A stretch of 56,841 nt of DNA from an uncultured Pirellulales bacterium (GTDB lineage Bacteria; Planctomycetota; Phycisphaerae; Sedimentisphaerales; Anaerobacaceae): contig CAYNKI010000001.1 of assembly GCA_964397675.1 (NCBI GenBank), positions 1 to 56,841 of the forward strand. Reading direction: 5' to 3'. Numbering within the stretch: the first letter of the stretch is position 1; the number at the start of each line of letters is the position of its first letter. Both the position numbers and the translations under genes were made by a program. Shown here one piece after another: positions 6,398-54,598 of the stretch. The notes under the pieces were generated by a model, which was given only the letters and a program-made list of their open reading frames with translations, was not told the origin of the DNA and ran no database searches.

Positions 6398-6418
6398 ACA
6401 ATAAACTACGAACTATGA
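6383..6418. repeat. heptad hairpin, same family
   Basis: GTTCATAGTCTATGAACAATAAACTACGAACTATGAG, spanning the fliJ stop. Confidence 0.75.
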
Positions 6419-6438
6419 GCTGATTTAGGAGAAACACA

Positions 6439-7218
6439 GTGAAAAAGAAGCTCATAATAATGATTGCAGCGGCAGGCCTGATAAGCTTTGCAGGGACATT
6501 TGCCTTTGCATGGTTAACCAAGCCAGCTCCAACAAGACCACCTAATGAGCCGAATCAATCAGTCCACGTTGGGCGGACCGACCAGCAAAATGAGCTGTTA
6601 GGGCCAGAAGTCGACACCCCGAAGTACTTCGGGACCGGCGACAGCAATCCGCCGGGGCGGGCAATCCCTGCCTCCGCAGGGGTAAACTTGTCCCCGCGAA
6701 AGCGGGGAACAACTATGATGGAAAATCAGCTCAAGAATCTTATCTATGAAGTCCAGGAAAAGATGAAAGAGTATAACGATAAGCTGCAAAGTCTCCAGAC
6801 GCGGGAACAGAGGCTGCAGATGGCTCAGGAAACGTTAAAAAAAGACATCGAAAACCTCAATAATCTACGAATCGAATTGGCTTCAACTGTTGCCCGTCTC
6901 AAAAATGAGCGAGATAAGTTAGCCAAAAGCAGGGTTGAGATTGCCCAAGCTGAAAAGGTCAACTTAGTTAAAATAGCAGCCGCTTATGACAAGATGGATT
7001 CTGCCAGTGCCGGCAAAATATTGACCAATATGTGCAACAGCCAGGCCCAAAGTGCAGACTCCGCAAGTGAAGAGAAAAACATGAATGATGCAGTTAAGAT
7101 TTTGCACTATATGAGTGAAAGAACTAAGGCAAATTTGTTAGCTGAATTAGCCAATTCTCAACCGGATCTTGCAGCGGATCTGTGTGGGAAGCTGAAACAA
7201 ATAACAGAAGGAAAATAG
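6439..7218 (+). CDS. flagellar protein with MgtE-N-like domain (YlxF/FlbB-type)
   Basis: GTG start with GGAG upstream. N-terminal TM, coiled coil, and a C-terminal block (AAAYDKMDSASAGKILTNM...AVKILHYMSERTKANLLAELA) resembling the MgtE-N fold of YlxF, which follows fliJ in Bacillus. Hosts PAL-B (PKYFGT) and a GC hairpin (SPRKRG). Confidence 0.5.
   Translation: MKKKLIIMIAAAGLISFAGTFAFAWLTKPAPTRPPNEPNQSVHVGRTDQQNELLGPEVDTPKYFGTGDSNPPGRAIPASAGVNLSPRKRGTTMMENQLKNLIYEVQEKMKEYNDKLQSLQTREQRLQMAQETLKKDIENLNNLRIELASTVARLKNERDKLAKSRVEIAQAEKVNLVKIAAAYDKMDSASAGKILTNMCNSQAQSADSASEEKNMNDAVKILHYMSERTKANLLAELANSQPDLAADLCGKLKQITEGK
6617..6634. repeat. PAL-B
   Basis: CCCCGAAGTACTTCGGGA in the ylxF-like gene (PKYFGT). 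Confidence 0.9.
6691..6708. repeat. GC hairpin family 2 (CCCCGC-N4-GCGGGG)
   Basis: TCCCCGCGAAAGCGGGGA in the ylxF-like gene (SPRKRG). Confidence 0.85.
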
Positions 7219-7221
7219 CTT

Positions 7222-7992
7222 ATGGATGTTGCCACGATAGTAGGAGTGGTTCTCGGCTTTATAGTCATTACCAGCGCTATTGTCGCCGGCGGTGGCTGGC
7301 AAATGTTTATTCATATCCCCTCAATGGCGATCACCGTGGGGGGAATGCTGTGCGCTACGCTTATACATTTTTCACTGCCACAGTTTCTGGGAATATTCTC
7401 AATAATCAAAAAAACAATTGTCGCAAAAATACCATCGCAGTCGGAATTAATTCAAAATATGGTTAATTACGCAGCTATCAACAGACGTGATGGAGCGTTA
7501 GCTCTGGAACAAGAGATTCGCAATACAAATGATTTGTTTTTAGGAAAGAGTTTGCAAATGCTTGTGGATGGGAAAGAACCCACAGATATTCGGGATCTTT
7601 TGTCCCTGGAGGTCCAAAACCTCCAGGATCGTCATGCCGGAGGTAAAAAGATTCTTGAATTTATGGGAGCAGCAGCTCCTGCCTTTGGGATGATAGGGAC
7701 ACTCATTGGCCTAATCCAGATGTTAAGAAACCTGGATTCTCCTAAATCAATAGGTTCCGGAATGGCAGTAGCTTTGCTTACAACTTTTTATGGAGCATTG
7801 ACAGCTAATTTGATTTTTCTGCCATTAGCAGGTAAATTAGGAATTTATTCCAAAGCAGAGACCACCACAATGGAGATGATCATAGAGGGCATCTGTGCCA
7901 TTGCACGTGGTGAGAATCCAACCGTTGTTCGCGAAAAACTACAAGCATTTATTTCCCAGGGCAGACGGGAAGAAGTAAAGGCCACCGTGTAG
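7222..7992 (+). CDS. motA: flagellar stator protein MotA
   Basis: Four TM segments. MotA/TolQ/ExbB signature GAAAPAFGMIGTLIGLIQML. Confidence 0.9.
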   Translation: MDVATIVGVVLGFIVITSAIVAGGGWQMFIHIPSMAITVGGMLCATLIHFSLPQFLGIFSIIKKTIVAKIPSQSELIQNMVNYAAINRRDGALALEQEIRNTNDLFLGKSLQMLVDGKEPTDIRDLLSLEVQNLQDRHAGGKKILEFMGAAAPAFGMIGTLIGLIQMLRNLDSPKSIGSGMAVALLTTFYGALTANLIFLPLAGKLGIYSKAETTTMEMIIEGICAIARGENPTVVREKLQAFISQGRREEVKATV

Positions 7993-8060
7993 AATTAAAA
8001 AATAAAGGAGTCCCTAAGGGATGACTCCCTTAATTTTAAATTTTGATATTTAATTTTTAC
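7993..8060. repeat. composite A/T-heptad hairpin element (short left arm)
   Basis: motA|motB junction. Core GGAGTCCCTAAGGGATGACTCC, right arm CTTAATTTTAAATTTTGATATTTAATTTTTAC. Confidence 0.7.
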
Positions 8061-8062
8061 GC

Positions 8063-8794
8063 TTGATAGTGTTTCGTACAAAAGAACAATCAGAACCGGA
8101 CGGACCCACAGGTGCACCGGAATGGATGGTAACTTTCAGCGACTGTATGACGCTGCTGTTGACGTTCTTCGTGCTGTTGTTGAGTTTCTCATCCTTTGAT
8201 GATAAAATTTTTCAGAAGTTAAAAGTGATTTTCTCCAATGCCCTGCCTGCGGTTAGCCAGCAAGACAAACAAGGAAAAGATGCTTTTTTGGCCACGCAGC
8301 AAATTCAACATACAGAGGATATTAGCGAAGGCAGTGAAAAACCAACTTTAGAAAAAGGAATGCAGGACCACCTAAAGCAAGAATCAGAGCCAATAGATTT
8401 CCGTAGCCGGAAGGTATTTTTAATCTCATCGGAGAAGATTTTTTGGGGTAAGGGGACCGCTATTTCTCTTCAAGGTCGTGAGGCTTTAGCCACTATAGCA
8501 TCATTCTTAAAACAAATACCCAACCGGGTAGTGATTAGTGAATGTCCCGCGAATCGCAAATCGCAAATCGCAAATCGCGACGTGTCACAGGCGATAAGCG
8601 ATTCGCAAATTGGTCTGCAGAGAGCTTGGGCGGTGGTGGAGTATCTGGTAAAAAAACAGCACCTCGACAAAAATTGGTTCAGCATCTCAGCAGCGAGCAC
8701 TGTGCCTCAAGAGAGCTTTGAAAGCGGTAAGCAGGCAGAGGAAACTAAACGAGTACTTGAGATTGTTTTATTGGAACGGAGCATTTACCATTGA
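8063..8794 (+). CDS. motB: MotB-like stator protein, paralogue 1
   Basis: N-terminal TM with the conserved Asp (MVTFSDCMTLLLTFFVLLL). Weak OmpA-like C-terminus (LQRAWAVVEYL). The TTG start is uncertain. Heptad repeat 8549-8582 is translated as ANRKSQIANRD. Confidence 0.7.
   Translation: MIVFRTKEQSEPDGPTGAPEWMVTFSDCMTLLLTFFVLLLSFSSFDDKIFQKLKVIFSNALPAVSQQDKQGKDAFLATQQIQHTEDISEGSEKPTLEKGMQDHLKQESEPIDFRSRKVFLISSEKIFWGKGTAISLQGREALATIASFLKQIPNRVVISECPANRKSQIANRDVSQAISDSQIGLQRAWAVVEYLVKKQHLDKNWFSISAASTVPQESFESGKQAEETKRVLEIVLLERSIYH
8549..8582. repeat. tandem heptads (AATCGCA x4)
   Basis: Inside motB paralogue 1. Confidence 0.85.
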
Positions 8795-9606
8795 GAAAAC
8801 AGAACCAAACAACGCAAGAAAGCTCTCCTAAAGTCCCCGCCTATATCGTCACATTTTCAGATATGGTAACGCTATTGCTAACCTTCTTTGTAATGCTGCT
8901 GAGCTTAGCGAGCGTGCAGGACCCCGAGCTATTTAACATGGGCCGAGGCTCGTTTATCCAATCAATAAAAGAACTTGGACTTGGAATGCTTTATGGCAGA
9001 AAGCCACGTCCTGATTCCGGCAACGCTAAAATCAAATATTTTATAAGTACGCCTGACAAGCTATTGCAGGTCAGAACTATAGATGCAAAGGAGGAAGAAC
9101 TTCGACGGATTTTCACAAAAATCAGCCGGTCAATGACAACTATACCTTCTCAAATAATTGCCAAAAATACTGCTCTTTCAGTAACGAATATTCGGTTCTC
9201 ACCAGGCCAGATAACGTTAAATGAATCGGCAAAGAAATACTTAGCAGAATTTTGCTTGGGTTTACAGAATTCTCGAAGATCAATCCCGAAGTACTTCGGG
9301 ACTGGAAGCCCGTTGGGAATCGAGAATCGAGAAGGCCTTTATGTGCTTGGTTTGGCTAATGAGACATCGGCGAGCTCGGACGAGCCGCAGATGACAGAAA
9401 AACAGCAATGGCTGCTCTCCGCCCGCAGAGCCCAAGCGGTTGCGAATTTCTTGCAAAATACCTTACAGTCCCGAAGTACTTCGGGACCGCCGGCGTGGCA
9501 TATCTATTGGTGGGGTGCAGGTCCAGGAGGAGATTGGGTGGCTAAAGACAGCCCAATCTCCAGACACTCGCAAATCCTAATCGCAGTCCTTCGGGCAAGT
9601 GATTAA
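8791..9606 (+). CDS. motB: MotB-like stator protein, paralogue 2
   Basis: TM with conserved Asp (IVTFSDMVTLLLTFFVMLL). OmpA-like block LSARRAQAVANFL. Overlaps paralogue 1 by 4 nt. Two PAL-B copies (PKYFGT, RSTSG). Confidence 0.7.
   Translation: MRKQNQTTQESSPKVPAYIVTFSDMVTLLLTFFVMLLSLASVQDPELFNMGRGSFIQSIKELGLGMLYGRKPRPDSGNAKIKYFISTPDKLLQVRTIDAKEEELRRIFTKISRSMTTIPSQIIAKNTALSVTNIRFSPGQITLNESAKKYLAEFCLGLQNSRRSIPKYFGTGSPLGIENREGLYVLGLANETSASSDEPQMTEKQQWLLSARRAQAVANFLQNTLQSRSTSGPPAWHIYWWGAGPGGDWVAKDSPISRHSQILIAVLRASD
9284..9301. repeat. PAL-B
   Basis: Perfect, in motB paralogue 2 (PKYFGT). Confidence 0.95.
9316..9333. repeat. tandem heptads (GAATCGA)
   Basis: Inside motB paralogue 2, 15 nt after a PAL-B copy. 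Confidence 0.7.
9469..9486. repeat. PAL-B
   Basis: Perfect, in motB paralogue 2 (RSTSG). Confidence 0.95.
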
Positions 9607-9753
9607 TTGGTGCGGGACTTGTCAAGTTTTTGGACAATTTGCTGGTTTAATCAGCCCATTTTTACACAAATCACGCACTAATTGCCCTCATGCGCAAGGA
9701 CCAATCCCGAAAATTAGCTGGAAAACAAAGATTTTGGTTCAATTGGTGCAGGG

Positions 9754-9769
9754 CGGCATACTATTTGCA
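9754..9769 (+). promoter_or_regulatory. sigma54-like promoter upstream of fliO
   Basis: cGGCATactatTTGCa has the GG and GC dinucleotides at the correct spacing. It is weaker than the other four (T instead of C at -22). The ATG lies only 19 nt after the -12 GC. Confidence 0.45.
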
Positions 9770-9786
9770 CATAAAAATGGTGAGTA

Positions 9787-10320
9787 ATGAGACATAGAAA
9801 AAAAATCGTGGTACTTCTGCTGACAGCCCTGATGTGCGGCATTCTTCTTGCAGCCTCAAGGCTATCGGTCGACCCCGCTGCTTCGCGTTTGTCAATCGGT
9901 GCGGGGTTGTTTGCGAATGATCCCAATTTTTCTACAAAAGCGAATAGTAATTCCGCTACCCAAGAGCTGTTCCTTAAAACAATGCTTGCGGTTCTACTTG
10001 TCATTGTTATAGGTGTGGCGGCAATTGTAACCTGCCGGAAACTTTTGCCGAAGATTGCACAGGGCGGAGCACTGGACTGGTTCAGTATCGCATTCAGCGG
10101 GACCGACAAAAAGATTCACATCTTAGAAACGACCCATCTCGGACCAAAAAAAGCAGTGCATCTGATCGAAATAGGTAATCAACAATTTCTTGTAGGCAGC
10201 ACAAATGAGAGCATTACTATGTTAGCTGATGTGACAGATGCTCGATGCTCGATACCGGATGCCAGTCAGGAATCGAGCATCGAGAATCAAGAATCGAGAA
10301 TCGAGAATGTGAGGATATAA
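9787..10320 (+). CDS. fliO: flagellar biosynthesis protein FliO
   Basis: Single TM plus the block LGPKKAVHLIEIGNQQFLVGSTNESITMLADV, typical of FliO. Directly precedes fliP. The C-terminal 25 aa are encoded by heptad-repeat DNA. Confidence 0.7.
   Translation: MRHRKKIVVLLLTALMCGILLAASRLSVDPAASRLSIGAGLFANDPNFSTKANSNSATQELFLKTMLAVLLVIVIGVAAIVTCRKLLPKIAQGGALDWFSIAFSGTDKKIHILETTHLGPKKAVHLIEIGNQQFLVGSTNESITMLADVTDARCSIPDASQESSIENQESRIENVRI
10237..10310. repeat. heptad hairpin (GATGCTC units pairing with GAATCGA/GCATCGA units)
   Basis: Encodes the fliO C-terminus. Left arm 10237-10253 is complementary to 10272-10284. Confidence 0.8.
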
Positions 10321-11151
10321 ATGGCAGGCTCAAAAAACGAAATCCCGATGTGCATCGGGACTCTGTTTCTGGTCTTTGCATTTTTGGGACCGGCCGATTT
10401 ATCTTTTGGGCAGGCTAATCGTCCATCATCCATCGTCGACCAAGGAACGACGGACGAAATCCCAAGTTTCGGTGATTTGATGACAGTTATAGATAAGGCC
10501 ACCAACAACGAGACAAAAGGTAAAGATTGGTCGACACCTGTCAAACTGGTAATCATTTTTACCGGCCTAGCGATTCTACCCAGTCTTTTAGTGATGATGA
10601 CATCCTTTACTCGAATAGTGATTGTCCTGTCTTTTGTTCGTCGGGCTTTGTCTACACAAACCATACCGCCAACTATTGCTATTATAGGTCTGGCATTATT
10701 TCTAACACTATATACCATGGCTCCTACGTATTCGGCGATCAATAGTGCCTCCATTCAGCCTTACCTTGCAGACACGATTGATTTTACAACAGCGGGAAAA
10801 AAGGCGGGCGATTGTATCAAGGAATTCATGCTCCGGCAAAGTAGGGAAGCTGATTTGGCACTTTTTGTGCAAATGGCTAAGATAGAACCTCCCGTTAGCC
10901 CTATGGATATCGATTTACATGTTGTAATTCCTGCATTCATTATCAGTGAATTTCGCACAGCGTTTGAGATAGGATGCCTTTTATTTATACCTTTCTTATT
11001 GGTGGATATGGTTATTGCAAGTGTTTTGCTGAGTGCGGGTATGATAATGTTGCCGCCGGTGATGATTTCGCTGCCTTTCAAGCTGATATTATTTATCCTT
11101 GTTGACGGCTGGGGATTACTGGCGAAAAGCCTTAGTTTAGGCTTCAAATAA
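10321..11151 (+). CDS. fliP: flagellar export gate protein FliP
   Basis: FliP motifs LPSLLVMMTSFTRIVIVLSFVR and GLALFLTLYTMAP. PAL-A variant at 10343 reads PMCIGT in the signal-peptide region. Confidence 0.95.
   Translation: MAGSKNEIPMCIGTLFLVFAFLGPADLSFGQANRPSSIVDQGTTDEIPSFGDLMTVIDKATNNETKGKDWSTPVKLVIIFTGLAILPSLLVMMTSFTRIVIVLSFVRRALSTQTIPPTIAIIGLALFLTLYTMAPTYSAINSASIQPYLADTIDFTTAGKKAGDCIKEFMLRQSREADLALFVQMAKIEPPVSPMDIDLHVVIPAFIISEFRTAFEIGCLLFIPFLLVDMVIASVLLSAGMIMLPPVMISLPFKLILFILVDGWGLLAKSLSLGFK
10343..10360. repeat. PAL-A, centre GTGC
   Basis: TCCCGATGTGCATCGGGA in fliP (PMCIGT). Confidence 0.9.
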
Positions 11152-11250
11152 ATGCAAAAATTAAAAGTTAAAAGTCAAAATTTCGGAGTTGCCGTTTCGT
11201 GTCAACGACTTCCTTAATTTAAAATTTTGTTATTTGATTTTTACATTTGG
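11150..11250. repeat. composite A/T-heptad hairpin element
   Basis: fliP|fliQ junction. AAATGCAAAAATTAAAAGTTAAAAGTCAAAATTTCGG - GC core - GACTTCCTTAATTTAAAATTTTGTTATTTGATTTTTACATTTGG. Confidence 0.85.
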
Positions 11251-11258
11251 TGATATAA

Positions 11259-11528
11259 ATGGATAGTAGCTTTGCTCTTTATATAGGCCGACACACCCTC
11301 GAGACAGCCTTGCTTTTAGCTGCCCCGATTCTGATAACCTGCATAGTAGTAGGTATGACAGTTACATTACTGCAGGCGGTCACCTCTATACGCGATATGA
11401 CCTTAACGATAGTTCCTAAACTTCTGGCTGTTGGCGCTGTCGTATTACTCTTTGGCGGCTGGATGCTCCAGGTCACACTTAGATTTGCTAACGAAATTTT
11501 TGGCCATATCCAAAATATTGGAAATTAA
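11259..11528 (+). CDS. fliQ: flagellar export gate protein FliQ
   Basis: 89 aa, two TM segments, between fliP and fliR. Confidence 0.9.
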   Translation: MDSSFALYIGRHTLETALLLAAPILITCIVVGMTVTLLQAVTSIRDMTLTIVPKLLAVGAVVLLFGGWMLQVTLRFANEIFGHIQNIGN

Positions 11529-11625
11529 ATGTAAAAATCAAAAAGCAAAAATCAAAATTGTGGAGTTGCCGCTGTGCGGCAACGACTTCCTTAATTTTAC
11601 ATTTTGCATTTTAATTTTTGATTTG
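11527..11625. repeat. composite A/T-heptad hairpin element
   Basis: fliQ|fliR junction. Core GTTGCCGCTGTGCGGCAAC (11565-11583). Confidence 0.9.
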
Positions 11626-11633
11626 TCCGGTAC

Positions 11634-12404
11634 ATGTTCGAAAAATTACTGAGTTTTGTAATGGTGCTGACCAGGATTTCGGCGTTTTTTCTGCTGCTTC
11701 CTGTATTTGGCTGGAAAACTATTCCGGTTAGGATCAAAGTTGCCTTGATCCTGCTTTTGTCATTTTTCTTTTCAATCCCGATGTACATCGGGACACCTTT
11801 GACTATCCCCGATCGAGCCGGGGATCCAAAGCAAGTCTCCTTTTTGGAGTCGATACCGCTGATAGCTAATGAAGCAACCTACGGATTGGCTCTGGGATTA
11901 GTCGTTACTCTAATATTTTCAGTGGTTAAACTCGCCGGTAGGATTATTGAAAGACAAATGGGTTTAGTGATGGCAAACATTATTGACCCTTTAACCGACG
12001 AAAGAACTCAGCCATTGGGTAGCTTGTTAGAGATGATATTTATAATTCTGTTTCTAAGCGCCAATGGCCACCATTTGTTCTTATTGATTATATCGAAAAG
12101 TTACGAGGCCTTTCCTGCCGGAAGTATACCCACGATACCGATTTTGGCCGGTGGAGTGATTAAAGCCAGCTCAGCAATGTTCTTTGCTGGTTTAAGATTA
12201 GCTGCACCAATGTTAGCAGCGTTTTTGTTATTGCTGGTTATCTTAGCGGTCTTAGCACGCGTGGTTCCGGAAATGAATATTCTGTTTATCAGTTTGCCAT
12301 TGCGCGTAGGCCTGGGATTGTTAATGGCAGCGATGATTTTGCCATTTATTAATGGATTTATAGCTGAATTCGCTGACTGGATGGTCAAACTGCTGCCTTT
12401 GTGA
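11634..12404 (+). CDS. fliR: flagellar export gate protein FliR
   Basis: 256-aa polytopic membrane protein between fliQ and flhB. PAL-A at 11776 reads PMYIGT. Confidence 0.9.
   Translation: MFEKLLSFVMVLTRISAFFLLLPVFGWKTIPVRIKVALILLLSFFFSIPMYIGTPLTIPDRAGDPKQVSFLESIPLIANEATYGLALGLVVTLIFSVVKLAGRIIERQMGLVMANIIDPLTDERTQPLGSLLEMIFIILFLSANGHHLFLLIISKSYEAFPAGSIPTIPILAGGVIKASSAMFFAGLRLAAPMLAAFLLLLVILAVLARVVPEMNILFISLPLRVGLGLLMAAMILPFINGFIAEFADWMVKLLPL
11776..11793. repeat. PAL-A
   Basis: Perfect, in fliR (PMYIGT). Confidence 0.95.
11806..11824. repeat. GC hairpin
   Basis: TCCCCGATCGAGCCGGGGA in fliR, 12 nt after a PAL-A copy. Confidence 0.6.
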
Positions 12405-12416
12405 AGTAAAAAGTAA

Positions 12417-12444
12417 AAAGGAAAAACTTTTGCCTTTTTCCTTT
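12417..12444. repeat. A/T hairpin with heptad lead-in (GTAAAAA GTAAAAA GGAAAAA)
   Basis: fliR|flhB junction. AAAGGAAAAA-cttttgcc-TTTTTCCTTT forms a 10-bp stem directly before the flhB RBS. Confidence 0.7.
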
Positions 12445-12455
12445 GGAGACCAATT

Positions 12456-13553
12456 ATGCCGGAGCAGCCAGCCGCTGAAAAGACCGAGCAGCCAACAGCA
12501 CGTAAATTACGGAAAGCCAAACAGCAGGGACAAGTGCCGCAAAGCCAGGAGTTAACATCCGTGGCGACGCTTATAGTGTTAGTACTGATGTTGGCTTTTT
12601 TAGCACCAAGCCTGCTGCAATGGTTCATCGTGAAAATCAAATCTGCTTGTGGCGGAACCCCGATGTACATCGGGGGAATCTTTGCCGACAGCAAGGCTTT
12701 TATTCAGTTTGTCAACACAAGTGTTATCGATTCAATACTCCTTATTAGCCCTATTTTCATAGCACTTGTAGCGGCCTCCATTCTGGCCGGAGCTACTATT
12801 AGCGGTTTTAATTTCACACCGGAAGCTGTCAAATTAAAATGGAGCACGATAAGTCCGGCAACAGGCCTTAAAAAGTTAGTAAACGCCCGCTCTATGGTGC
12901 ACCTGCTCGTATCCATAGCAAAATTGTTTTTTGTCTTCATCGTTGTCTGGTTGTATCTACAAAGTAAGCATGATACGTTGGCTACACTTCGGTGGGCTGA
13001 GAGTATTCAGATAATTACAGCTATCGCAAGGATTATATTTGGATTATGCGTACGGGTTGGTATTGCGCTATTGGTTATAGGGATTGCCGATGCCTTTTAC
13101 CAGAAATGGAAGTATATCCAAGACCTGAAGATGACGCGTCAGGAAGTCAAACAAGAACGCAAGGAAACAGAAGGTTCGCCTGAGGTCAAAACCAGAATCC
13201 GAAAGATTCAGTTCGAGATGTCAATGAAACGCTTGCTCCAGGAAGTACCCAAGGCCAACGTGATTCTTGTCAACCCGACACACGTAGCAGTGGCACTACG
13301 TTACGAGGCAAAGACCATGGAAGCTCCTGTCGTGGTGGCAAAAGGAGCAGATTATTTAGCTGAAAAAATCAACGAAATTGCACGGGCTTATGGGATTGCT
13401 ATAGTAAGAAGGCCTGAGTTAGCAAGAACAATATATTCCACAGTCCAGCTCGGCAGTCCTATTCCAGAAACCCTATACGTGGCGGTAGCCGAAGTGCTGG
13501 CGATGATTTATCGGCTGCGACGCAAAAAGAGGAACCCTCAAGCACAATCTTAG
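12456..13553 (+). CDS. flhB: flagellar export switch protein FlhB
   Basis: N-terminus EKTEQPTARKLRKAKQQGQVPQS. NPTH autocleavage motif (VNPTHVAVAL). PAL-A at 12658 reads PMYIGG. Confidence 0.95.
   Translation: MPEQPAAEKTEQPTARKLRKAKQQGQVPQSQELTSVATLIVLVLMLAFLAPSLLQWFIVKIKSACGGTPMYIGGIFADSKAFIQFVNTSVIDSILLISPIFIALVAASILAGATISGFNFTPEAVKLKWSTISPATGLKKLVNARSMVHLLVSIAKLFFVFIVVWLYLQSKHDTLATLRWAESIQIITAIARIIFGLCVRVGIALLVIGIADAFYQKWKYIQDLKMTRQEVKQERKETEGSPEVKTRIRKIQFEMSMKRLLQEVPKANVILVNPTHVAVALRYEAKTMEAPVVVAKGADYLAEKINEIARAYGIAIVRRPELARTIYSTVQLGSPIPETLYVAVAEVLAMIYRLRRKKRNPQAQS
12658..12675. repeat. PAL-A with C..G outer pair
   Basis: CCCCGATGTACATCGGGG in flhB (PMYIGG). Confidence 0.95.
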
Positions 13554-13749
13554 TTTGTGAAAACCAAAAGGCTCCTGCAAAATCAGAGGCCTGAGTAGGC
13601 TGTTAGATCGTGTATATGGGAAATATCAGTTCGTATATTTGTTTACTTTCGGTTTTAGGGCATATTGGTTAATGTTATCGGGGCATATTGGCCGACTGTA
13701 TTAATTGTATTGCTGGGAATTTTCCATTTTCGCGGAACGGACACAACTA

Positions 13750-14658
13750 ATGTTTGAGAGTTTGCCTATAACGGTGTTGGACAAGTGTGAGGGGCGGACT
13801 AATCTGGGCGATAACGATGAGATTGTCAGTTTTGACCTTGATGTTCTTGGCAAACCAGTACACCTTCAAGTTGCGGTCAAGGATAAGCAAGCGAGGCTGG
13901 CAGATATTGTGCCTGCGGCAAGAGCGCTGTCATCCAGGATTGTCGAAACCACGATGAAGAGGCTCAAGGACATTGGAGCATCTGTTCCATGTCACAAAGG
14001 TTGTGCGGCTTGTTGCACCTACTACTTAGTTTGCATTTCGGTTCCTGAAGTATTCCGTCTCGTGCAAGAAACGACAATGATGCCATTAGAACGGTGTGGA
14101 GATATAGTGGACTCTTGCTCGAAAGTGGCTAAACGAATCCGTAGATACCTGGAGAAACACATCGCTCTCAAGGAACTCACACATACTAAAACGAGCTCAC
14201 AAGTACCAACTCTTGAGATACATGGGGAGCAATTGGAAAAACTCCCAGATTGGTATGCTAAGCAGAAATTGCCTTGTGCTTTTCTGCGCAACAGGTTATG
14301 CACAATTTACGAACAAAGACCTGTTACCTGCCGCGAGCATTTGGTAGTAGGTACCGCGCCATGTCAGCTCGACAAGGAGGATGGTGAACGGAGAATAGAA
14401 GGGCCGACCCCCCCTATCCGCATGATAGATGCTCTGAAACTCTTGGCCAGCGATCTTGAGGGCACAACCCGACAGTCAGTACCACTACCCTACGCATTTG
14501 ACTGGTATCGAGGAAACATAGAACGGAGTAACCGCACATGGTCTGCTCTGACGATAGCCCAACGGTTTATTGGGATTGTAAGGGCGATGATTTCGGAGAG
14601 TAATAGAATACGAGCAGAACGGGTAAAATATGAAAGCAAACAAGGCACAGGTTCTTAG
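13750..14658 (+). CDS. CxxCxxCC-type Cys-rich protein (YkgJ/FliB flagellin N-methylase-like family)
   Basis: ORF 13705..14658, with ATG 13750 preferred. Cys clusters PCHKGCAACC and CAFLRNRLCTIYEQRPVTCREH resemble the putative zinc/iron-chelating CxxCxxCC family that includes Salmonella FliB. Convergent with fliD. Confidence 0.45.
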   Translation: MFESLPITVLDKCEGRTNLGDNDEIVSFDLDVLGKPVHLQVAVKDKQARLADIVPAARALSSRIVETTMKRLKDIGASVPCHKGCAACCTYYLVCISVPEVFRLVQETTMMPLERCGDIVDSCSKVAKRIRRYLEKHIALKELTHTKTSSQVPTLEIHGEQLEKLPDWYAKQKLPCAFLRNRLCTIYEQRPVTCREHLVVGTAPCQLDKEDGERRIEGPTPPIRMIDALKLLASDLEGTTRQSVPLPYAFDWYRGNIERSNRTWSALTIAQRFIGIVRAMISESNRIRAERVKYESKQGTGS

Positions 14659-28993: not shown

Positions 28994-29004
28994 TAAGAAA
29001 GCCA

Positions 29005-29100
29005 AATAAAAAATCAAAAATTAAAAATCAAAACTTTGGTGTTGCCGCTACACGGCAACGAATTCCTTAATTTTGCATTTTGCATTTTTATGTTTAATTT
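29005..29100. repeat. composite A/T-heptad hairpin element
   Basis: flgK|flgL junction. Core GTTGCCGCTACACGGCAAC (29041-29059). Confidence 0.9.
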
Positions 29101-29103
29101 TCT

Positions 29104-31086
29104 TTAGATTATTTCCATAATAGTTCGCAGCGACGATTGAACGGTGGTTAGATATTTGGCTATTGCCTGAAACATCTGTTCAAAAATCAACATCTGGGCA
29201 GCTTCATCGTTGATATTGACGCCACTTATCTCGCTTTGCTTGTTGGCAAGATTTTGAACCATGACCTCAAGATTATCCTGGCGCATTTGTTTGATAGAGA
29301 TTTGCTGACCGACATTAGCAATCATCCGATTATAAAACTCTCCAGGCGTCATGGCATTCAAACTACTTATAGCTTGGTCCTTTAATCCTACCAGCTGCAG
29401 GGCATTGGTATTGTCAGTAAAATCAGCTCCCAGGGCTGTTGCAATTCTTCTTGGCGAATTGATAAGATCTGAGCAAACTGCCATATCCATAGCGCTGCTA
29501 CCAGAAAAAAAGGTGTTCATTCCAACTGCTGCCAGCACTCCCGAAGTATCAGTATCCGCAAAAGCATCGATACTAAAGGAATCTCCGTTAACCAGATCAC
29601 CTGTACTAAGAGATATCTTGATTCCATTGCCCACATCAAACTTGTCACCTGCCGCATAACCGGAACCGATATTGAGAGTAGTAACTGTCTCTAAGACGCC
29701 GTTAGTCACTGTCAGGCTGAGGGTGCCATTTCCAACCTCGCCGGTACCGGAGACCGTGAACGTGAAAGTATCGTTTGAGCTTCCCGTATAAATTCCTGAT
29801 ACACTCACAGTCGGATCGGATGACCCGTTGAAATCAATGTCAGCAGCCTCAGGCTCAGGTAGAACGGCAGGCAGAAAATCAAATTTATAGTCTGTCTGAG
29901 CCTGGATACACAGCTTCAAAGAAGCTGCCGAAGCAGTCAATGGATTCAGACCATCAACTTCAATTGCCGAAATATCCGTGGCTATTGTAGTTAATGAACC
30001 AGTCAATACATCAACATTGATTTCGTGGCGTGTTATTTCTCCGGTACTGGTATTTGTAACCCTTATATATATTTTACCATCATTTACAGGTGGGTCGAAA
30101 TCAGCGATATCCTCACTTGCCATCCTCCAGCCGGTCAGTTCGCTAAAGGAGCCTTCTGAACCTACTCCTTGAAAATGGCATTGATTTACCTGATTTATTA
30201 TAGCCTTTGCTAAGGTGTTCAATTCATCGTTAATCCCATAGATAAAGTCATTTTTCAATGACAACAATCCGCCGAGTCTTCCACCTTGTACATTCGTGTT
30301 ATAATTATGCACGCCAGCGGCAGAAATACCCATATATTTGTTATCTTTCAAACCCACTTCTAATTCGGTTACAGAGGGCCCTGACACCACGGGTATTCCA
30401 GCAATACTAATATCTACCACGCCATACTCTCGTTGCTGGGTCTGGATACCAACCAATTCGGACAGCTCTGTTATGAGCTGGTCCCTTTGATCACGCAAAT
30501 TGTTGGCCTGTCCACAGTTGATTTCCATCTTTTCTATGCTGTCGTTGAGCTCGGCAATCTGGCCTATTAGTGTATTAATCCGCTCAATGGCATTTTCTGC
30601 TTCTAATGTAATCTGGGCTTCTAACCTGCATAGGAATTCTCCTAATGTTCTAAATTGTCCAGCCAAATTCTGACCAGCAGTTACAGCTTGGCTTTGCCAA
30701 ACAATATCCAAGGGATGAGCACTCAGATCCTGTAACGCATTGAAAAATTCGTCTATCGTTTTACTCAAACTGCTGCCAACCGAAAGCTCTCCAAACGCAT
30801 TTTCAAGATTTTGCAGCGTCACAAGCTCCCGTGAAATCTGTCCGGATGACGAACGCTGCCGGAGAATTTCTTGCTCCAGGAGACTGTCTATTAATCGGGT
30901 GACTCCAGAAACGCTTACACCTCCACCCAGCACAACCGAACCAGCTTGCGACGAATATGCGGGAGTAAGCTCTATTCTCTGGCGGTGGTAGCCATCAGTA
31001 ACCGCATTGGCAATATTATTGCCGATTATGTTAAGAGCCTTCTGGGCTGCATCAAGACCGCTCATTGCTATGGAATAATCCTGCAT
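29104..31086 (-). CDS. flgK: flagellar hook-associated protein 1 FlgK
   Basis: N-terminus SGLDAAQKALNIIGNNIANAVTDGYHRQ and a C-terminal rod/hook-family block (NINDEAAQMLIFEQMFQA). 660 aa. Confidence 0.9.
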   Translation of the reverse strand: MQDYSIAMSGLDAAQKALNIIGNNIANAVTDGYHRQRIELTPAYSSQAGSVVLGGGVSVSGVTRLIDSLLEQEILRQRSSSGQISRELVTLQNLENAFGELSVGSSLSKTIDEFFNALQDLSAHPLDIVWQSQAVTAGQNLAGQFRTLGEFLCRLEAQITLEAENAIERINTLIGQIAELNDSIEKMEINCGQANNLRDQRDQLITELSELVGIQTQQREYGVVDISIAGIPVVSGPSVTELEVGLKDNKYMGISAAGVHNYNTNVQGGRLGGLLSLKNDFIYGINDELNTLAKAIINQVNQCHFQGVGSEGSFSELTGWRMASEDIADFDPPVNDGKIYIRVTNTSTGEITRHEINVDVLTGSLTTIATDISAIEVDGLNPLTASAASLKLCIQAQTDYKFDFLPAVLPEPEAADIDFNGSSDPTVSVSGIYTGSSNDTFTFTVSGTGEVGNGTLSLTVTNGVLETVTTLNIGSGYAAGDKFDVGNGIKISLSTGDLVNGDSFSIDAFADTDTSGVLAAVGMNTFFSGSSAMDMAVCSDLINSPRRIATALGADFTDNTNALQLVGLKDQAISSLNAMTPGEFYNRMIANVGQQISIKQMRQDNLEVMVQNLANKQSEISGVNINDEAAQMLIFEQMFQAIAKYLTTVQSSLRTIMEII

Positions 31087-31100
31087 CTCTTTTCCTCTTA

Positions 31101-31129
31101 GTTATTGGTAACTGGTAATTACCAATAAC
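31101..31129. repeat. heptad hairpin TTATTGG TAACTGG TAATTAC CAATAAC
   Basis: The 11-bp stem GTTATTGGTAA / TTACCAATAAC lies between the flgN-like gene and flgK. Confidence 0.8.
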
Positions 31130-31136
31130 AATTTGC

Positions 31137-35967: not shown

Positions 35968-35990
35968 AATTTCTTTCTCCTTTTTAGTTA

Positions 35991-36045
35991 ATTGTTCATA
36001 GTTCGTAGTTCATCGATGAACAATGAACCATGAACTACGAACTAC
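35991..36045. repeat. heptad hairpin, same family
   Basis: flgF|flgG junction. ATTGTTCATAGTTCGTAGTTCATCGATGAACAATGAACCATGAACTACGAACTAC. Confidence 0.85.
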
Positions 36046-36051
36046 TTTACT

Positions 36052-40372: not shown

Positions 40373-40410
40373 CTCAAATTCGTATCAACACGAAAGCCAA
40401 ACTTTAATTA

Positions 40411-40425
40411 GCAATTGTCGTGCCA
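40411..40425 (-). promoter_or_regulatory. sigma54 promoter of the flgD-flgL operon
   Basis: The minus strand reads TGGCACgacaaTTGC, an exact consensus. About 100 nt upstream of the flgD ATG. Confidence 0.8.
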
Positions 40426-40730: not shown

Positions 40731-40832
40731 TAAAGTAAAGTCAAAAAATCAAAGATTAAAAATCAAAATTGTGGAATCGCCGCTTTGCGGCGATGACTTC
40801 CTTAATTTTACATTTTGATATTTGATTTTTGG
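40731..40832. repeat. composite A/T-heptad hairpin element
   Basis: flgD / activator-1 divergent region. Core ATCGCCGCTTTGCGGCGAT (40776-40794). Confidence 0.9.
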
Positions 40833-42556: not shown

Positions 42557-42571
42557 TGGCACAATTATTGC
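42557..42571 (+). promoter_or_regulatory. sigma54 promoter of the TPR / activator-2 / fliLMN-flhA block
   Basis: TGGCACaattaTTGC, an exact consensus. The core is almost identical to the flgB promoter. Confidence 0.75.
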
Positions 42572-42588
42572 TATTCTTATTAGAAGTC

Positions 42589-45054
42589 ATGGCTAAAAAA
42601 AAACTACAAGATACGACCCCGATGTACATCGGGGCTGACGTACCAACATCAAGACGGCATAAACGTCTTTCAATAATTCAGAAAATTCTAATTGGCTGTA
42701 TTGTTCTGATTGTGGCAATGTTGCTGTATACACTACTGAGGGCTCCCGCAAGGCGGGGTCCCAAATCCTTATCGATGCCCGTTATCGGGAATCGTGTTTC
42801 GGGAATCGGGAATCGTGTTTCGGGAATCGGGAATCGTGCATCGAAACACGAATCACGAACCACAAACCACGAATCACGATTCCCGTCAACTGAGGGTCTG
42901 TCTTTAAAAACTGCTGAAACATTCTATCTTCAGAGGGATTTCGACAAAGCTTACGCCGCGTATAACCAGCTTCGCCTGGACCTGCCCGTCAATGACCAAG
43001 AGGATCAAATGAGAGATTTCCTGCAGCTCAAAATGGCTTTTTGTAGAAAAAACGCTCATAAATCTGAGCAAGCTGAACCCTTATTCAGGGTAGTTTCGAA
43101 AAGTCGCTGCCCTGTTGTAAGAGCAGTTGCCAATTACTATCTCAGCCTGCTCGAAATGCAAAAAGAAAAATACTTGAAGGCTCAAACACAAGCTTACCAG
43201 ACGATTGCTTTAATCAGTGCGCTAACCTTCGATTGGCAGTGGACTTTATCATTGCAGCGAAACTGCCAATTTCTTGTCGCTGAATCGATAACCAGACATG
43301 TCCTCTCACTTTGCGACGCCGATAAAGACATGCCCGTGGAATTATGGAGTAGTATACCAGAAATGGACCCTTTTATAAACCTAAGTGAAGCAGAACTGCG
43401 CTGCCTTTTGAACTCCGGCTCAGAACAATTGCGCGGCGCACTGCTTAGCCCGCAGATTCAACAGCTTGAGCATCAAGGCGGCCCAGTTAGCTGGTCTGTC
43501 ATCTGCAATGGAGCATCTATTGAGGAGCTATTGGCAAGATTTGCTGCCAACGCTGACCTTGATATTGAATGGGCTTGCAACAGTAACCCCGCTCCGATGT
43601 ACATCGGGGCGGAAAAAGACAATTTTCGCAAAAGGCCAGTGTGTTTGTATATGTCATCGGCAACAACGCAGCAGATTGTAACAGTAGCAACTGGTTGTGC
43701 TGGTTTACTGGCTCGAATGGATAATCCCCGCTTTCGCGGGGACAAGCTTGCCCCTGCAGAAGCAGGGGGAACAGTTAAAATCTTCAACCCGTTTAACTAT
43801 ACATCATTATCAGAACATACAGCCTTGCTGGCCCAGGAAGCTGTTTCGCTGTGGCAGATATTTCTGCTGACTTCTGGTGACGACCCCGATGTACATCGGG
43901 GCATCGCCGACGAAGGCAGCCTTGATCCAGTCCAGGGCTCCGCCCTGGCTCATTTTGCATTGGGACTTTTGCAGGCCCAAAGGAGTTGCTTAACCGAAGC
44001 GATTGCCGAGTACAAATTGGTTGCCAATCGCTACCCGCGAACATCTTTTGCACCGTACGCACTGCTGGCCTCCAGCAAGCTGAAAACCAACTTGCACGAC
44101 TATTTTGGTGCCCGTGAGGATTTGAAGCAGCTTACAGAACAATTTTCTGATACTGAACTTTCCGACAAGGCTTGCTTGTATCTTGCTAATGCTACTATGA
44201 AAGCTGGGCTTTTATCCGAAGCCGCCAAGCTATATAGCAAAGTTTACAATCTTGGTTTCTCTTTAGAATCTCAGAGGGATTCTGCAATCGGAGCGGGCAG
44301 GTGTTTCTATGAGAACAAAGACTATGAGAACGCAGCTAAATGGTTAACTCGATATATCAACCTCTCCAAAGACCACACAGATAAAGATTTGTATTTAGCT
44401 TGTTTTCTATTAGGCAAAACCTACCTTGAGCTGAATTTGCCTCAACAAGCCTGCAATGCTTTTGAATCCGCATTAGGTGGACTGGCAGGCCAACATGTCA
44501 TGCAAAAGTATGTAGAGGCCCTATCAGCTTTGGTTAAAACGCAAATCATGCAGGGCCATTTCATAGAGGCATTAAAGTTATTAGAGAATACCAGCTCATG
44601 GCAGCTATCACAGAAAGAATCTCTTGAAATATTACTACTCAAGGCAAGTGCCCTCCGCTCAATGGGCTTGTATGACGAAGTTATTGCGGCACTTCGTGAT
44701 AAGTCGGAGTACGTGCCTGACTCGCAATTAAAGGCCAAAATATTTTTTGAACAGTCCAAATGCTTCCTCGCTAAAGGCAACCTGGAACTTGCTCGTGAGA
44801 AATTAAGCGAAATTCTCGTTTTCATAGAACCTGGGCCTCTGGCGCAAGAAATTGGGTGTGTATTGGCTGATGTTTGTTTGAAGCTCGGCCAGGATTCACA
44901 AGCAATCTCCATTTGTCTACAGCTTTTGGATTCTGCCCCGGAAGATCAAATAAAGCAAAGAGCGTCAAACCTACTGGCAGCAGCTTACACTCAGCAGAAA
45001 AACTATGACCAGGCAGTTTTAGCTCTTTTGGGCCAGGGATATTTAACACAATGA
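42589..45054 (+). CDS. large TPR-repeat membrane-anchored protein
   Basis: ORF 42568..45054. TTG 42568 lies inside the promoter, so ATG 42589 is preferred. One TM (ILIGCIVLIVAMLLYTLL) and many TPR-like repeats. Hosts 3 PAL-A copies, 2 GC hairpins and a 100-nt heptad hairpin. Confidence 0.65.
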   Translation: MAKKKLQDTTPMYIGADVPTSRRHKRLSIIQKILIGCIVLIVAMLLYTLLRAPARRGPKSLSMPVIGNRVSGIGNRVSGIGNRASKHESRTTNHESRFPSTEGLSLKTAETFYLQRDFDKAYAAYNQLRLDLPVNDQEDQMRDFLQLKMAFCRKNAHKSEQAEPLFRVVSKSRCPVVRAVANYYLSLLEMQKEKYLKAQTQAYQTIALISALTFDWQWTLSLQRNCQFLVAESITRHVLSLCDADKDMPVELWSSIPEMDPFINLSEAELRCLLNSGSEQLRGALLSPQIQQLEHQGGPVSWSVICNGASIEELLARFAANADLDIEWACNSNPAPMYIGAEKDNFRKRPVCLYMSSATTQQIVTVATGCAGLLARMDNPRFRGDKLAPAEAGGTVKIFNPFNYTSLSEHTALLAQEAVSLWQIFLLTSGDDPDVHRGIADEGSLDPVQGSALAHFALGLLQAQRSCLTEAIAEYKLVANRYPRTSFAPYALLASSKLKTNLHDYFGAREDLKQLTEQFSDTELSDKACLYLANATMKAGLLSEAAKLYSKVYNLGFSLESQRDSAIGAGRCFYENKDYENAAKWLTRYINLSKDHTDKDLYLACFLLGKTYLELNLPQQACNAFESALGGLAGQHVMQKYVEALSALVKTQIMQGHFIEALKLLENTSSWQLSQKESLEILLLKASALRSMGLYDEVIAALRDKSEYVPDSQLKAKIFFEQSKCFLAKGNLELAREKLSEILVFIEPGPLAQEIGCVLADVCLKLGQDSQAISICLQLLDSAPEDQIKQRASNLLAAAYTQQKNYDQAVLALLGQGYLTQ
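42617..42634. repeat. PAL-A with C..G outer pair
   Basis: In the TPR protein gene (PMYIGA). Confidence 0.95.
42745..42757. repeat. GC hairpin CCCGCAAGGCGGG
   Basis: In the TPR gene (PARRGP). Confidence 0.75.
42786..42885. repeat. 100-nt heptad hairpin (GGGAATC / GTGTTTC units pairing with GAAACAC / GAATCAC units)
   Basis: Inside the TPR CDS, translated as IGNRVSGIGNRVSGIGNRASKHESRTTNHESRF. The terminal CGGGAATCGTG pairs with CACGATTCCCG. Confidence 0.85.
43592..43609. repeat. PAL-A, 1 mismatch
   Basis: CTCCGATGTACATCGGGG in the TPR protein gene (PMYIGA). Confidence 0.8.
43725..43742. repeat. GC hairpin family 2, opposite orientation
   Basis: TCCCCGCTTTCGCGGGGA in the TPR gene (NPRFRGD). 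Exact reverse complement of the 6691 copy. Confidence 0.85.
43884..43901. repeat. PAL-A with C..G outer pair
   Basis: In the TPR protein gene (PDVHRG). Confidence 0.95.
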
Positions 45055-53537: not shown

Positions 53538-53792
53538 ATGGATGAAGCGGTAGGACACATTCTAAAAAGTGAGGAGGTCAAGCTCGAAGGCCGAGTTCAA
53601 CTCGATGAGGTCCAGTCGCAGACCGCCAAAGGCGGACCAAAAGAGAGGAAAGAGGTCTCGGCCATAAAGCAGGTGAGCATCTTAGAAAACCACCCTGAAT
53701 TCGCCGTTATAGAGGTAACCTGCTGTTGTGGTGAGAGAATATATTTAAGGTGTGATTATGCTGGTCAAGAAAGTCAAAAAATTAAAGATTAA
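53538..53792 (+). CDS. small Cys-containing protein, unknown
   Basis: 84 aa with motif FAVIEVTCCCGERIYLRCDY. The last codons and the stop lie in the left arm of a composite repeat. Confidence 0.35.
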   Translation: MDEAVGHILKSEEVKLEGRVQLDEVQSQTAKGGPKERKEVSAIKQVSILENHPEFAVIEVTCCCGERIYLRCDYAGQESQKIKD

Positions 53793-53800
53793 AAATCAAA

Positions 53801-53818
53801 TCCCGATGTACATCGGGA
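53801..53818. repeat. PAL-A
   Basis: Perfect. Occupies the core of composite element 53770-53880. Confidence 0.95.
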
Positions 53819-53835
53819 CCCGAAGTGCTTCGGGA
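53818..53835. repeat. PAL-B, centre GTGC
   Basis: ACCCGAAGTGCTTCGGGA, abutting the PAL-A copy in the same composite core. Confidence 0.85.
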
Positions 53836-53902
53836 TGACTTCCTTAATTTTACATTTTGATATTTGATATTTAATTTTGGGAAAGATGATTGGAGAAAAA
53901 CA

Positions 53903-54516: not shown

Positions 54517-54598
54517 AATGCAAAAATCAAAAATTAAAAATCAAAATTGTGGTCTCGATGTACATCAGGATTGCATTTTGCATTTTGACTTTTGATCT
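54517..54598. repeat. composite A/T-heptad hairpin element with degenerate PAL-A as core
   Basis: CAAAAATCAAAAATTAAAAATCAAAATTGTGG - TCTCGATGTACATCAGGA - TTGCATTTTGCATTTTGACTTTTGAT. Confidence 0.8.
54553..54570. repeat. PAL-A, degenerate
   Basis: TCTCGATGTACATCAGGA in the core of composite element 54517-54598. Its ATG is the candidate lipoprotein start. Confidence 0.6.

Follow-up and report, generated by a model that had tools for sequence, protein, structure and literature searches.

A modular palindromic repeat family of Planctomycetota and Nitrospirota in the spacers of a flagellar gene cluster

The stretch of DNA analysed here, called the window throughout, comprises positions 1 to 56,841 of contig CAYNKI010000001.1 from an uncultured Pirellulales bacterium (assembly GCA_964397675.1). 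These 56.8 kb (44% G+C) carry a flagellar gene cluster, several of whose spacers hold an A/T-rich palindromic element of about 100 nt, the A/T element, which is the subject of this work. Pfam assignments place MotA (7222-7992), MotB (8063-8794), FliO, FliP (10321-11151), FliQ (11259-11528), FliR (about 11661-12404) and FlhB (12456-13553) on the + strand and FliD, FlgL, FlgK and FlgD on the - strand; two sigma-54 activators, FliL, FliM/N, FlhA and a FliA-like sigma factor are also present. The closest FliR homologues are at most 83% identical to that of the window and, where named, come from metagenome-assembled genomes (MAGs) of Phycisphaerae, Sedimentisphaerales or Planctomycetota. An earlier note on this DNA had described eight related elements as composite hairpins, most of them lying between co-transcribed genes, which bracket fliQ, and had suggested that they could adjust the expression of export-gate subunits needed at different stoichiometries. 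As set out below, the palindromic repeat family is multicopy and is not specific to the flagellar export gate.

A covariance model (R1) was built from an alignment (A1) of 63 copies, of which the window supplied four and other genomes 59, and used to scan the window with filters off. Its matches were exactly the eight sites of the earlier note, the only other match having an E value of about 1. Seven of the sites are clear (35-117 bits), but the fliR/flhB site is marginal and we do not count it as a family member. The motifs of the arms are likewise far more frequent than in shuffled sequence: the right-arm 23-mer GACTTCCTTAATTTTACATTTTG occurs six times in the window with at most two mismatches, against 0.00 expected (100 shuffles), and the left-arm 18-mer five times, against 0.18 expected from shuffles. 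The sites are:

7993..8059, + strand: truncated copy at motA/motB (R1 match from 7967, 35.2 bits, E=1e-4; fold z=-2.25)
11152..11248, + strand: full copy at fliP/fliQ (R1 match from 11146, 84.7 bits), with a degenerate core GTTGCCGT/TGTCAAC
11529..11624, + strand: full copy at fliQ/fliR (R1 match from 11523, 116.7 bits), with core GTTGCCGC-TGT-GCGGCAAC
12405..12455, + strand: marginal, small AGTAAAA-type A/T hairpin in the fliR/flhB spacer (R1 match 12399-12460, 24.7 bits, E=0.023)
29004..29101, + strand: full copy at flgK/flgL (R1 match from 28999, 93.5 bits on the + strand versus 41.6 on the - strand)
40741..40832, + strand: full copy between flgD (- strand) and a sigma-54 activator gene (+ strand) (R1 match from 40734, 113.7 bits), with core ATCGCCGC-TTT-GCGGCGAT
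53774..53878, + strand: variant copy with the left inner arm missing and an exact right-arm motif (R1 match from 53767, 53.2 bits; fold z=-4.9)
54517..54598, + strand: variant copy with the right inner arm missing and one mismatch in the left-arm motif (R1 match from 54512, 51.7 bits; fold z=-2.7)

Non-coding DNA makes up 7.5% of the window, and every window copy falls within it. The motA stop codon is followed directly by the 7993 copy, in which the left arm is short (AATTAAAAAATAAAGGA), the core reads GTCCC-TAA-GGGAT and the right arm is complete (GACTCCCTTAATTTTAAATTTTGATATTTAATTTTTAC, two mismatches to the motif). The first base of the fliP/fliQ copy follows the fliP stop codon and its end lies 10 nt ahead of the fliQ ATG; the fliQ/fliR copy similarly starts on the base after the fliQ stop codon, and folds at -29.8 kcal/mol (z=-5.4), its opposite strand at -33.4 kcal/mol (z=-6.1). 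The flgK/flgL copy, with core GTTGCCGC/GCGGCAAC and a GAATTCC variant, is inverted relative to its minus-strand genes; in the sequence the stop codon of flgK can be read at 29104-29106, and the ATG at 28993 is probably that of flgL. The 40741-40832 copy (-32 kcal/mol, z=-5.5, with fliQ/fliR one of the two best + strand folds of the window copies) lies within a 647-nt divergent intergenic region and not between cistrons. In the 53774 copy the core consists of two tandem copies of a 16-nt palindrome of this genome (CCCGATGTACATCGGG + CCCGAAGTGCTTCGGG), and the left arm contains the stop codon of an upstream 84-aa open reading frame (ORF); the core of the 54517 copy is a diverged form of this palindrome, CTCGATGTACATCAGG. 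The fliR/flhB site has a lag-7 autocorrelation of 0.55, no family-specific motif and a fold no better than shuffles (z=-0.41). Thus, the eight sites of the earlier note were all recovered, but the one it gave at 12417 is unconvincing; the gene junctions that it named, motA/motB, fliP/fliQ, fliQ/fliR, fliR/flhB and flgK/flgL, agree with Pfam.

The complete element is 95-110 nt long and is an imperfect palindrome throughout, with ends AAATGYAAAAAT...ATTTTTRCATTT. Its left arm consists of (A)AATGY, about three 7-nt units (CAAAAAT-like, for example AAAAATC) and then CAAAATTGTGGA, and its right arm of GACTTCCTTAATTTTRCATTTTG followed by T-rich 7-nt units that complement the left arm and terminate in ATTTTTRCATTT. 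The inner stem, CAAAATTGTGGA / GACTTCCTTAATTTT, is almost invariant, with CAAAATTGTGGA paired to (GAC)TTCCTTAATTTT. Across the 63 copies it is 95.9% paired and includes a G.U (G.T) pair conserved in 53 of them, as well as a conserved U/U (T/T) mismatch and a conserved one-sided bulge of 3-4 nt, GAC(T). The search pattern itself set the right inner arm, whose apparent invariance is thereby inflated, so that independent conservation is that of the left arm and core only. At the apex stands a GC-rich mini-hairpin that is exchangeable between copies and absent from some. The element is MITE-like (miniature inverted-repeat transposable element) in size and shape, as the earlier note had it, being short and non-coding with terminal inverted repeats.

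Applied to the raw alignment, RNAalifold recovered only five core pairs, because of gaps and the weak A-U arms, and the structure was therefore given by hand and tested with controls. On this structure the core helix shows compensatory double changes at all seven of its pairs, with 94.6% of cells paired, in agreement with the covarying GC core that had been described, and the outer arms are 79.6% paired. Covariation over the 63 copies was 0.148, compared with 0.090 after shuffling and at most 0.056 when the partners were slid. The full window copies are predicted to fold into long interrupted hairpins on either strand (-18 to -33 kcal/mol, z -1.8 to -6.1), which together with the excess of arm motifs over shuffles upholds the description as composite hairpins with A/T-rich arms; if transcribed, they would form long intercistronic RNA structures. 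The mean fold energy of the two strands is equal on average (-26.4 and -26.0 kcal/mol). Lag-7 autocorrelation is 0.44-0.50 in full A/T copies and reaches 0.73 in sibling hairpins of other sequence. Two further observations concern the inner stem and the coding potential. By eye only, we noticed that ACUUCCUUA of the inner stem, set against GGAG, recalls Shine-Dalgarno/anti-Shine-Dalgarno mimicry. A small ORF within the element (ATG...TAA, 21 codons in the fliP/fliQ copies) was considered and rejected, as many copies have ATG TAA or no ATG and each 7-nt unit shifts the frame.

The independence of the core is apparent from two orthologous loci (L076 365-455 and L098 2090-2195) in MAGs labelled Nitrospirae and Nitrospinota. 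Their flanks are 92-95% identical, and they differ by a 15-nt palindrome, TCTACG-ACT-CGTAGA, at the exact symmetry centre of an otherwise coreless element. The core is therefore a separate module, gained or lost on its own.

The distribution of the family was examined by running the search pattern GAMTYCCTTAATTTNNNATTTTG, a 23-nt arm motif, on 8-kb blocks of species-representative genomes. Matches were obtained in 102 blocks: 72 from Planctomycetota (including Pirellulales, Phycisphaerae and Sedimentisphaerales), 15 from Nitrospirota, one from Nitrospinota, eight without a phylum label and six others, in which the left arm is absent and which are probable chance matches. R1 added more copies within matched blocks, up to five per 8 kb and in mixed orientations. 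Nitrospirota mostly carry the coreless form (…AAAATTGTG-GAATTCCTTAATTTT…), whereas copies in Planctomycetota mostly have a core, the recurrent ones being GTTGCCGC/GCGGCAAC, ATCGCCGC/GCGGCGAT, ATCCGCC/GGCGGAT, ATCCCGGC/GCCGGGAT and GTCCC/GGGAC; some copies have longer structured inserts. A metagenome scan with an exact 43-nt subfamily pattern gave only seven further copies, all at different loci. The whole window had no Rfam match at the gathering score, and when 11100-11700 was scanned permissively, the matches, to eukaryotic miRNA and snoRNA models, were all at chance level; among the papers searched, none contained the motif strings of the family.

The genes beside these copies are of very different kinds. 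Copies lie at rplN/rplX in two Planctomycetota-type MAGs and one Nitrospiraceae MAG, at rpsC/rplP in another Nitrospirota MAG, and directly 5' of an ORF that by eye resembles ribosomal protein L36. The five-copy block (L049) encodes HTH, ParB_N and DUF1376 proteins, has copies at nearly every gene junction and looks like part of a prophage or plasmid, judging by its gene content. A phage contig (L123; IMG/VR IMGVR_UViG_3300031673_014681) with terS, a 170-aa ORF, terL, portal and S49 protease genes contains two full copies, at 357-468 (terS/orf) and 994-1103 (orf/terL), both inverted relative to the genes. Such a phage is a possible vehicle for spread between lineages.

Crude ORF calls around 65 copies from other genomes placed 50 of them between tandem genes, 11 at convergent and four at divergent junctions, in keeping with the intercistronic position that the earlier note described for most copies. 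Since the tandem copies are co-oriented with the genes in 23 cases and anti-oriented in 27, there is no orientation preference relative to transcription. The family strongly favours tandem junctions and the 3' ends of genes, and avoids promoter regions. Full copies begin 0-11 nt past the upstream stop codon and finish about 10 nt before the next start codon, so that stop and start would come to lie at the base of the stem. Of the 18 co-oriented copies 11, and of the 23 anti-oriented copies 8, fold more stably on the transcribed strand. A strand-specific function was considered and set aside, given the lack of orientation bias and the equal folding of the strands. So was a replication-strand bias: all the window copies are on the + strand, yet other contigs mix orientations.

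Near-identical copies at unrelated loci indicate how the family is dispersed. A copy in one species representative (L068) is 100% identical over 111 nt to one in a different species (L095), another pair (L008 and L056) is 99% identical over 107 nt, and two copies in the same MAG (L047 and L063) match at 97.7% over 133 nt, with a 27-nt insertion in the left arm in common. The flanks are unrelated in all three pairs.

Comparison with the relatives of the window gave a complementary picture. Across seven syntenic relatives (L103, L104, L106 and L108-L111; about 100 kb) only one A/T-type copy was found, at fliP/fliQ of L104, versus seven in the 57-kb window; there has been a lineage-specific expansion of the family in the lineage of the window. 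In six of these relatives motA and motB overlap or are 2 nt apart, and in five fliQ and fliR are separated by just 3-13 nt, these two junctions being free of the element in most relatives. In L103, whose FliR is the nearest in identity (83%), another kind of hairpin lies at fliP/fliQ. At other junctions the relatives have hairpins of unrelated 7-nt units, namely TTGGTAA/TTACCAA, GATGCTC/GAGCATC, GCCTAAAGT, TATCAGG/CCTGATA and GTTCATA/GAACTAC, some of them nested, as well as a plain run of six ATTTACC. Sibling hairpins of this kind are also seen in the window, at 1406-1478, 35968-36051, 31087-31136, 6398-6438 and 42781-42890; the types are GTTCATT/GAACTAC, TTGGTAA/TTACCAA and ATCGGGA.ATCGTGT/CACGAAT, and the last site (42781-42890) is inside the ORF of a TPR protein. 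In L104, hairpins of the GTCATTGCGAGG/CCTCGCAATGAC type occupy 10745-10990 in the fliR/flhB spacer, and in L106 repeat-derived insertions were noted in a MotB-like protein and in FliR, that of the MotB-like protein being an in-frame stretch, ...IPAFAGMTSPPHKRG....

At closer range, five near-identical strains (about 99.8%) all carry the copies of the window, and over the 1.4 kb compared two of the few substitutions fall within the fliQ/fliR element. One strain of similar identity (L113) has an extra 7-nt unit, AAAAGTT, in the fliR/flhB spacer (12405-12430), indicating that change in unit number is an ongoing mutation in such arms. Two independent assemblies of the same species (L120 and L121) start inside the core of the 40741-40832 copy, at about 40773 of the window; the repeat thus breaks short-read assemblies.

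The copy in L104 allows a measure of constraint. The fliP/fliQ spacers of L104 (9611-9717) and the window are both 107 nt long and are 88% identical, whereas the 4-fold sites of fliP, fliQ, fliR and flhB are 47% identical (346 sites), near saturation. This difference suggests that the element is under purifying selection, that copies are homogenised or that similar copies were inserted at this site independently. We favour orthology of the two copies, because they have variant units in common and the tail of the spacer is identical.

We think it probable that the A/T element is a proliferating, non-autonomous, non-coding palindromic repeat of modular build, closest to the REPIN/MITE elements and the STRR hairpins of cyanobacteria. 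Its three modules are the outer arms of 7-nt units, the near-invariant inner stem and the exchangeable apical GC mini-hairpin. Copies would multiply in genomes by a mechanism acting in trans that leaves no target duplication; they persist almost only in spacers, chiefly at tandem junctions and gene 3' ends. They may be tolerated there as inserts that fold back on themselves, whichever strand is transcribed: in mRNA the stop codon before the insert and the ribosome-binding site after it would stay adjacent at the base of the stem, so that operon expression and translational coupling could survive. The copies at rplN/rplX and rpsC/rplP show that the element is tolerated in essential, coupled operons. 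Any effect on fliP-fliQ-fliR-flhB would then be that of a generic long interrupted duplex in a polycistronic mRNA and not a dedicated flagellar control, acting perhaps through RNase III-type processing, as a barrier to 3' exonucleases or by modulating coupling. Known hairpins make it plausible, by analogy, that the element has a generic part in the processing or stability of mRNA or in coupling.

Several results weigh against this interpretation. No target-site duplication or flanking direct repeat was seen at the ends set by the three near-identical pairs (L008/L056, L068/L095 and L047/L063), as the earlier note had already observed by eye for the window copies. Pfam found no transposase or RAYT among the genes of the window; no protein family recurred beside copies when 648 ORFs from 100 loci were clustered; and a search of loci totalling about 0.8 Mb, in 8-kb blocks and single contigs, found no arm pairs enclosing a gene. 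Among the close strains, all about 99.8% identical and all either carriers or ending inside an element, there is no clean pair of filled and empty sites. Finally, the conservation at fliP/fliQ and the near-invariance of the inner stem across phyla point to a constraint on the sequence itself, which a purely selfish element fails to explain, unless through its own mobility machinery or gene conversion. This constraint, together with the identity between species, is the main fact that a neutral passenger model leaves unexplained, and that of the inner stem would leave room for a bound factor.

In a different view, the A/T element and its sibling 7-nt hairpins are a hitherto undescribed, domesticated, sequence-constrained and protein-recognised class of operon punctuation in Planctomycetota and Nitrospirota, processing transcripts or coupling and uncoupling translation at cistron boundaries, exchanged by phages and capturing apical GC palindromes. 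The near-invariant inner stem with its conserved mismatches and bulge, the 88% versus 47% identity and the copies that are 100% identical between species are what suggest it, and we hold it as a tentative and unlikely possibility. A related proposal, also unlikely to our minds, is a site acting at the DNA level, in which a host protein (a nucleoid, supercoiling, recombination or replication factor) recognises the inner stem as a duplex, a cruciform or a single-stranded hairpin. The E. coli REP/BIME elements, for example, bind IHF, gyrase and Pol I. Such a site would account for the indifference to strand and orientation, the non-Watson-Crick features and one-sided bulge retained in the inner stem, the 99-100% identical copies in different species and the conservation of the fliP/fliQ copy beyond neutral expectation. 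However, no protein emerged as a candidate, no gene is found repeatedly beside the copies (100 loci), restriction to spacers and expansion in one lineage are equally well explained by a proliferating repeat, and the invariance of the right-arm columns is inflated by the search pattern that set them. Local origin de novo, by 7-nt slippage and palindrome-making template switching in place with no dispersal from a source, is in our estimation highly improbable. It draws on the strains that differ by a single 7-nt unit and on the many unrelated 7-nt-repeat types at the same junctions (TTGGTAA, GATGCTC, GCCTAAAGT, TATCAGG, GTTCATT), some nested, but about 30 nt of specific inner sequence are common to the A/T family across phyla, and copies 98-100% identical, including the pair with the idiosyncratic 27-nt insertion, lie at unrelated loci. 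Both of these features exclude independent growth of the family, though slippage may still explain the variation in arm length and some of the other hairpin types.

Two remaining proposals assign the element a function in transcription or in flagellar expression. On both strands the order is an A-rich arm, a GC stem-loop and a U-rich arm, as in a bidirectional intrinsic terminator or attenuator; convergent junctions (11) outnumber divergent ones (4), and the truncated 7993 copy fits the consensus in a terminator scan. Yet in the full copies the U-run is 8-9 nt past the core stem, the sequence there being GACTTCCTTAATTTT, and the scan of 7000-14000 calls neither full copy, its consensus allowing 0-2 nt to the U-run. 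Efficient termination would moreover be harmful in ribosomal-protein and phage packaging operons and at junctions where the genes of relatives overlap, and a GC stem is wholly lacking from coreless copies, all of which makes this function quite improbable. As for the dedicated post-transcriptional regulator of the earlier note, in which the hairpins bracketing fliQ set the mRNA stability or translation of FliP, FliQ, FliR and FlhB, fliQ is indeed flanked by two full copies with a small hairpin before flhB, the fliP/fliQ copy is kept in one relative well above neutral sites, and some hairpin occupies the fliP/fliQ spacer in most of the eight genomes compared. Against these stand the presence of the family at unrelated junctions in many genomes, among them ribosomal-protein operons, a prophage-like cluster and the terS-terL region of a phage, its random orientation, the equal folding of its strands, the minimal fliQ/fliR and motA/motB junctions of most relatives, the different fliP/fliQ hairpin of L103 and the unrelated hairpins elsewhere. 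An export-gate stoichiometry device is therefore very doubtful, and we return to a proliferating modular repeat as the interpretation we prefer.

The relationship of this repeat to known systems can be described feature by feature. The 7-bp units of cyanobacterial STRR sequences include CCCCAGT, TTGGTCA and CAACAGT. STRR hairpins of 7-bp repeats have been described between hupS and hupL, with a suggested role in transcript stability or translational coupling (PMC2670836). The two groups have in common 7-bp units, hairpins and a location in spacers between co-transcribed genes. In contrast, the A/T family is found in MAGs of Planctomycetota and Nitrospirota, with no cyanobacterial genome among the 102 matches, its unit is CAAAAAT-like and so unlike those of STRRs, it is a discrete element whose length is fixed, whose inner stem is conserved and free of repeats and whose GC core can be exchanged, and nearly identical copies are spread over different species.

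REPINs are doublets of REP sequences that form hairpins and are mobilised by RAYT transposases (PMC3116915), and REP sequences fall into superfamilies (PMC3733652). Like the A/T element they are extragenic, imperfect hairpins of about 100 nt, multicopy and non-autonomous, with unrelated flanks and no target-site duplication, and they too have subfamilies with distinct hairpin sequences in one genome. However, the A/T arms are A-rich or T-rich and lack a palindrome of their own, the element has a single hairpin at its centre or, in coreless copies, none, and forms no doublet, and no GTAG or CGTC tag is evident; in addition, no RAYT gene was found near the copies in the 8-kb blocks and single contigs.

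The Correia elements of Neisseria (CREE/NEMIS) form hairpins in mRNA that are bound or cleaved by RNase III, insert at TA with duplication, contain IHF sites and create promoters (PMC2649163). With these and other bacterial MITEs the A/T family has in common its character as inverted-repeat elements of about 100-150 bp between genes (PMC2649163, PMC2229807, PMC10969869), and the handling of CREE by RNase III is a plausible model, by analogy, for A/T hairpins in RNA. The family nevertheless differs in its 7-nt-repeat arms and variable GC centre, no TA or other duplication was found, and its ends are unrelated to the CREE ends in PMC2649163. A classical MITE was rejected as a description: no target duplication was seen, and no parent insertion sequence was found in about 0.8 Mb of loci.

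The intercistronic RNase III sites of phage T7 are orientation-dependent and are not dispersed repeats. They resemble the A/T element as interrupted hairpins between consecutive cistrons, most clearly where elements occupy successive junctions (L123 and L049), but are shorter, and the A/T hairpins are predicted folds. Intergenic TAACTGA heptamers of Beggiatoaceae, cyanobacteria and Bacteroidetes (PMC4679880) are likewise 7-nt spacer repeats close to start codons, with a patchy spread across phyla that suggests horizontal transfer; they are, however, direct repeats with no complementary arm or hairpin.

Two further features of the window deserve mention. Motifs of the sigma-54 promoter type (TGGCAC-N5-TTGCW or one mismatch) were noted at 209-224, 9755-9769 and 42557-42572 on the + strand and at 40410-40425 on the - strand, preceding the first gene block, fliO, the TPR gene at 42568 and flgD, respectively. 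Four relatives retain the fliO motif, and with it an inverted repeat lying upstream, CTTGTCAAGTTTTT(C/G)GACAATTTGC (window 9618-9642), which would fit a single sigma-54-dependent operon from fliO to flhB. The 16-nt palindrome that forms the core of the 53774 copy occurs 58 times in the 56.8 kb, in the forms CCCGATGTACATCGGG and CCCGAAGTACTTCGGG, between which a single position of the stem covaries. Forty-four of these copies lie in ORFs, where the three frames give the peptides PMYIG, PDVHR and SRCTSG; examples are found in fliP (10344-10359), fliR (11777-11792), flhB (12659-12674) and a second motB-like gene (9285-9300 and 9470-9485). Alignment with seven orthologues shows them as in-frame insertions in variable loops of FliR, FlhB, FliP and the MotB-like protein. 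They may be likened to the Rickettsia palindromic elements, but are much smaller.

The repeat content of uncultivated Planctomycetota and Nitrospirota has barely been described, and the A/T family marks where assemblies of these genomes break. It is also a natural experiment, in which about 100 nt are placed between translationally coupled genes without breaking the operon, and it offers a means of testing whether 7-nt-repeat hairpins, which as the STRRs of cyanobacteria have been known for decades, share one mechanism across phyla. If the constraint on its sequence is imposed by a bound protein or a processing enzyme, the family would represent a general layer of control over operon expression in these phyla; if not, it would be one more selfish palindromic repeat, whose location among flagellar genes is incidental.

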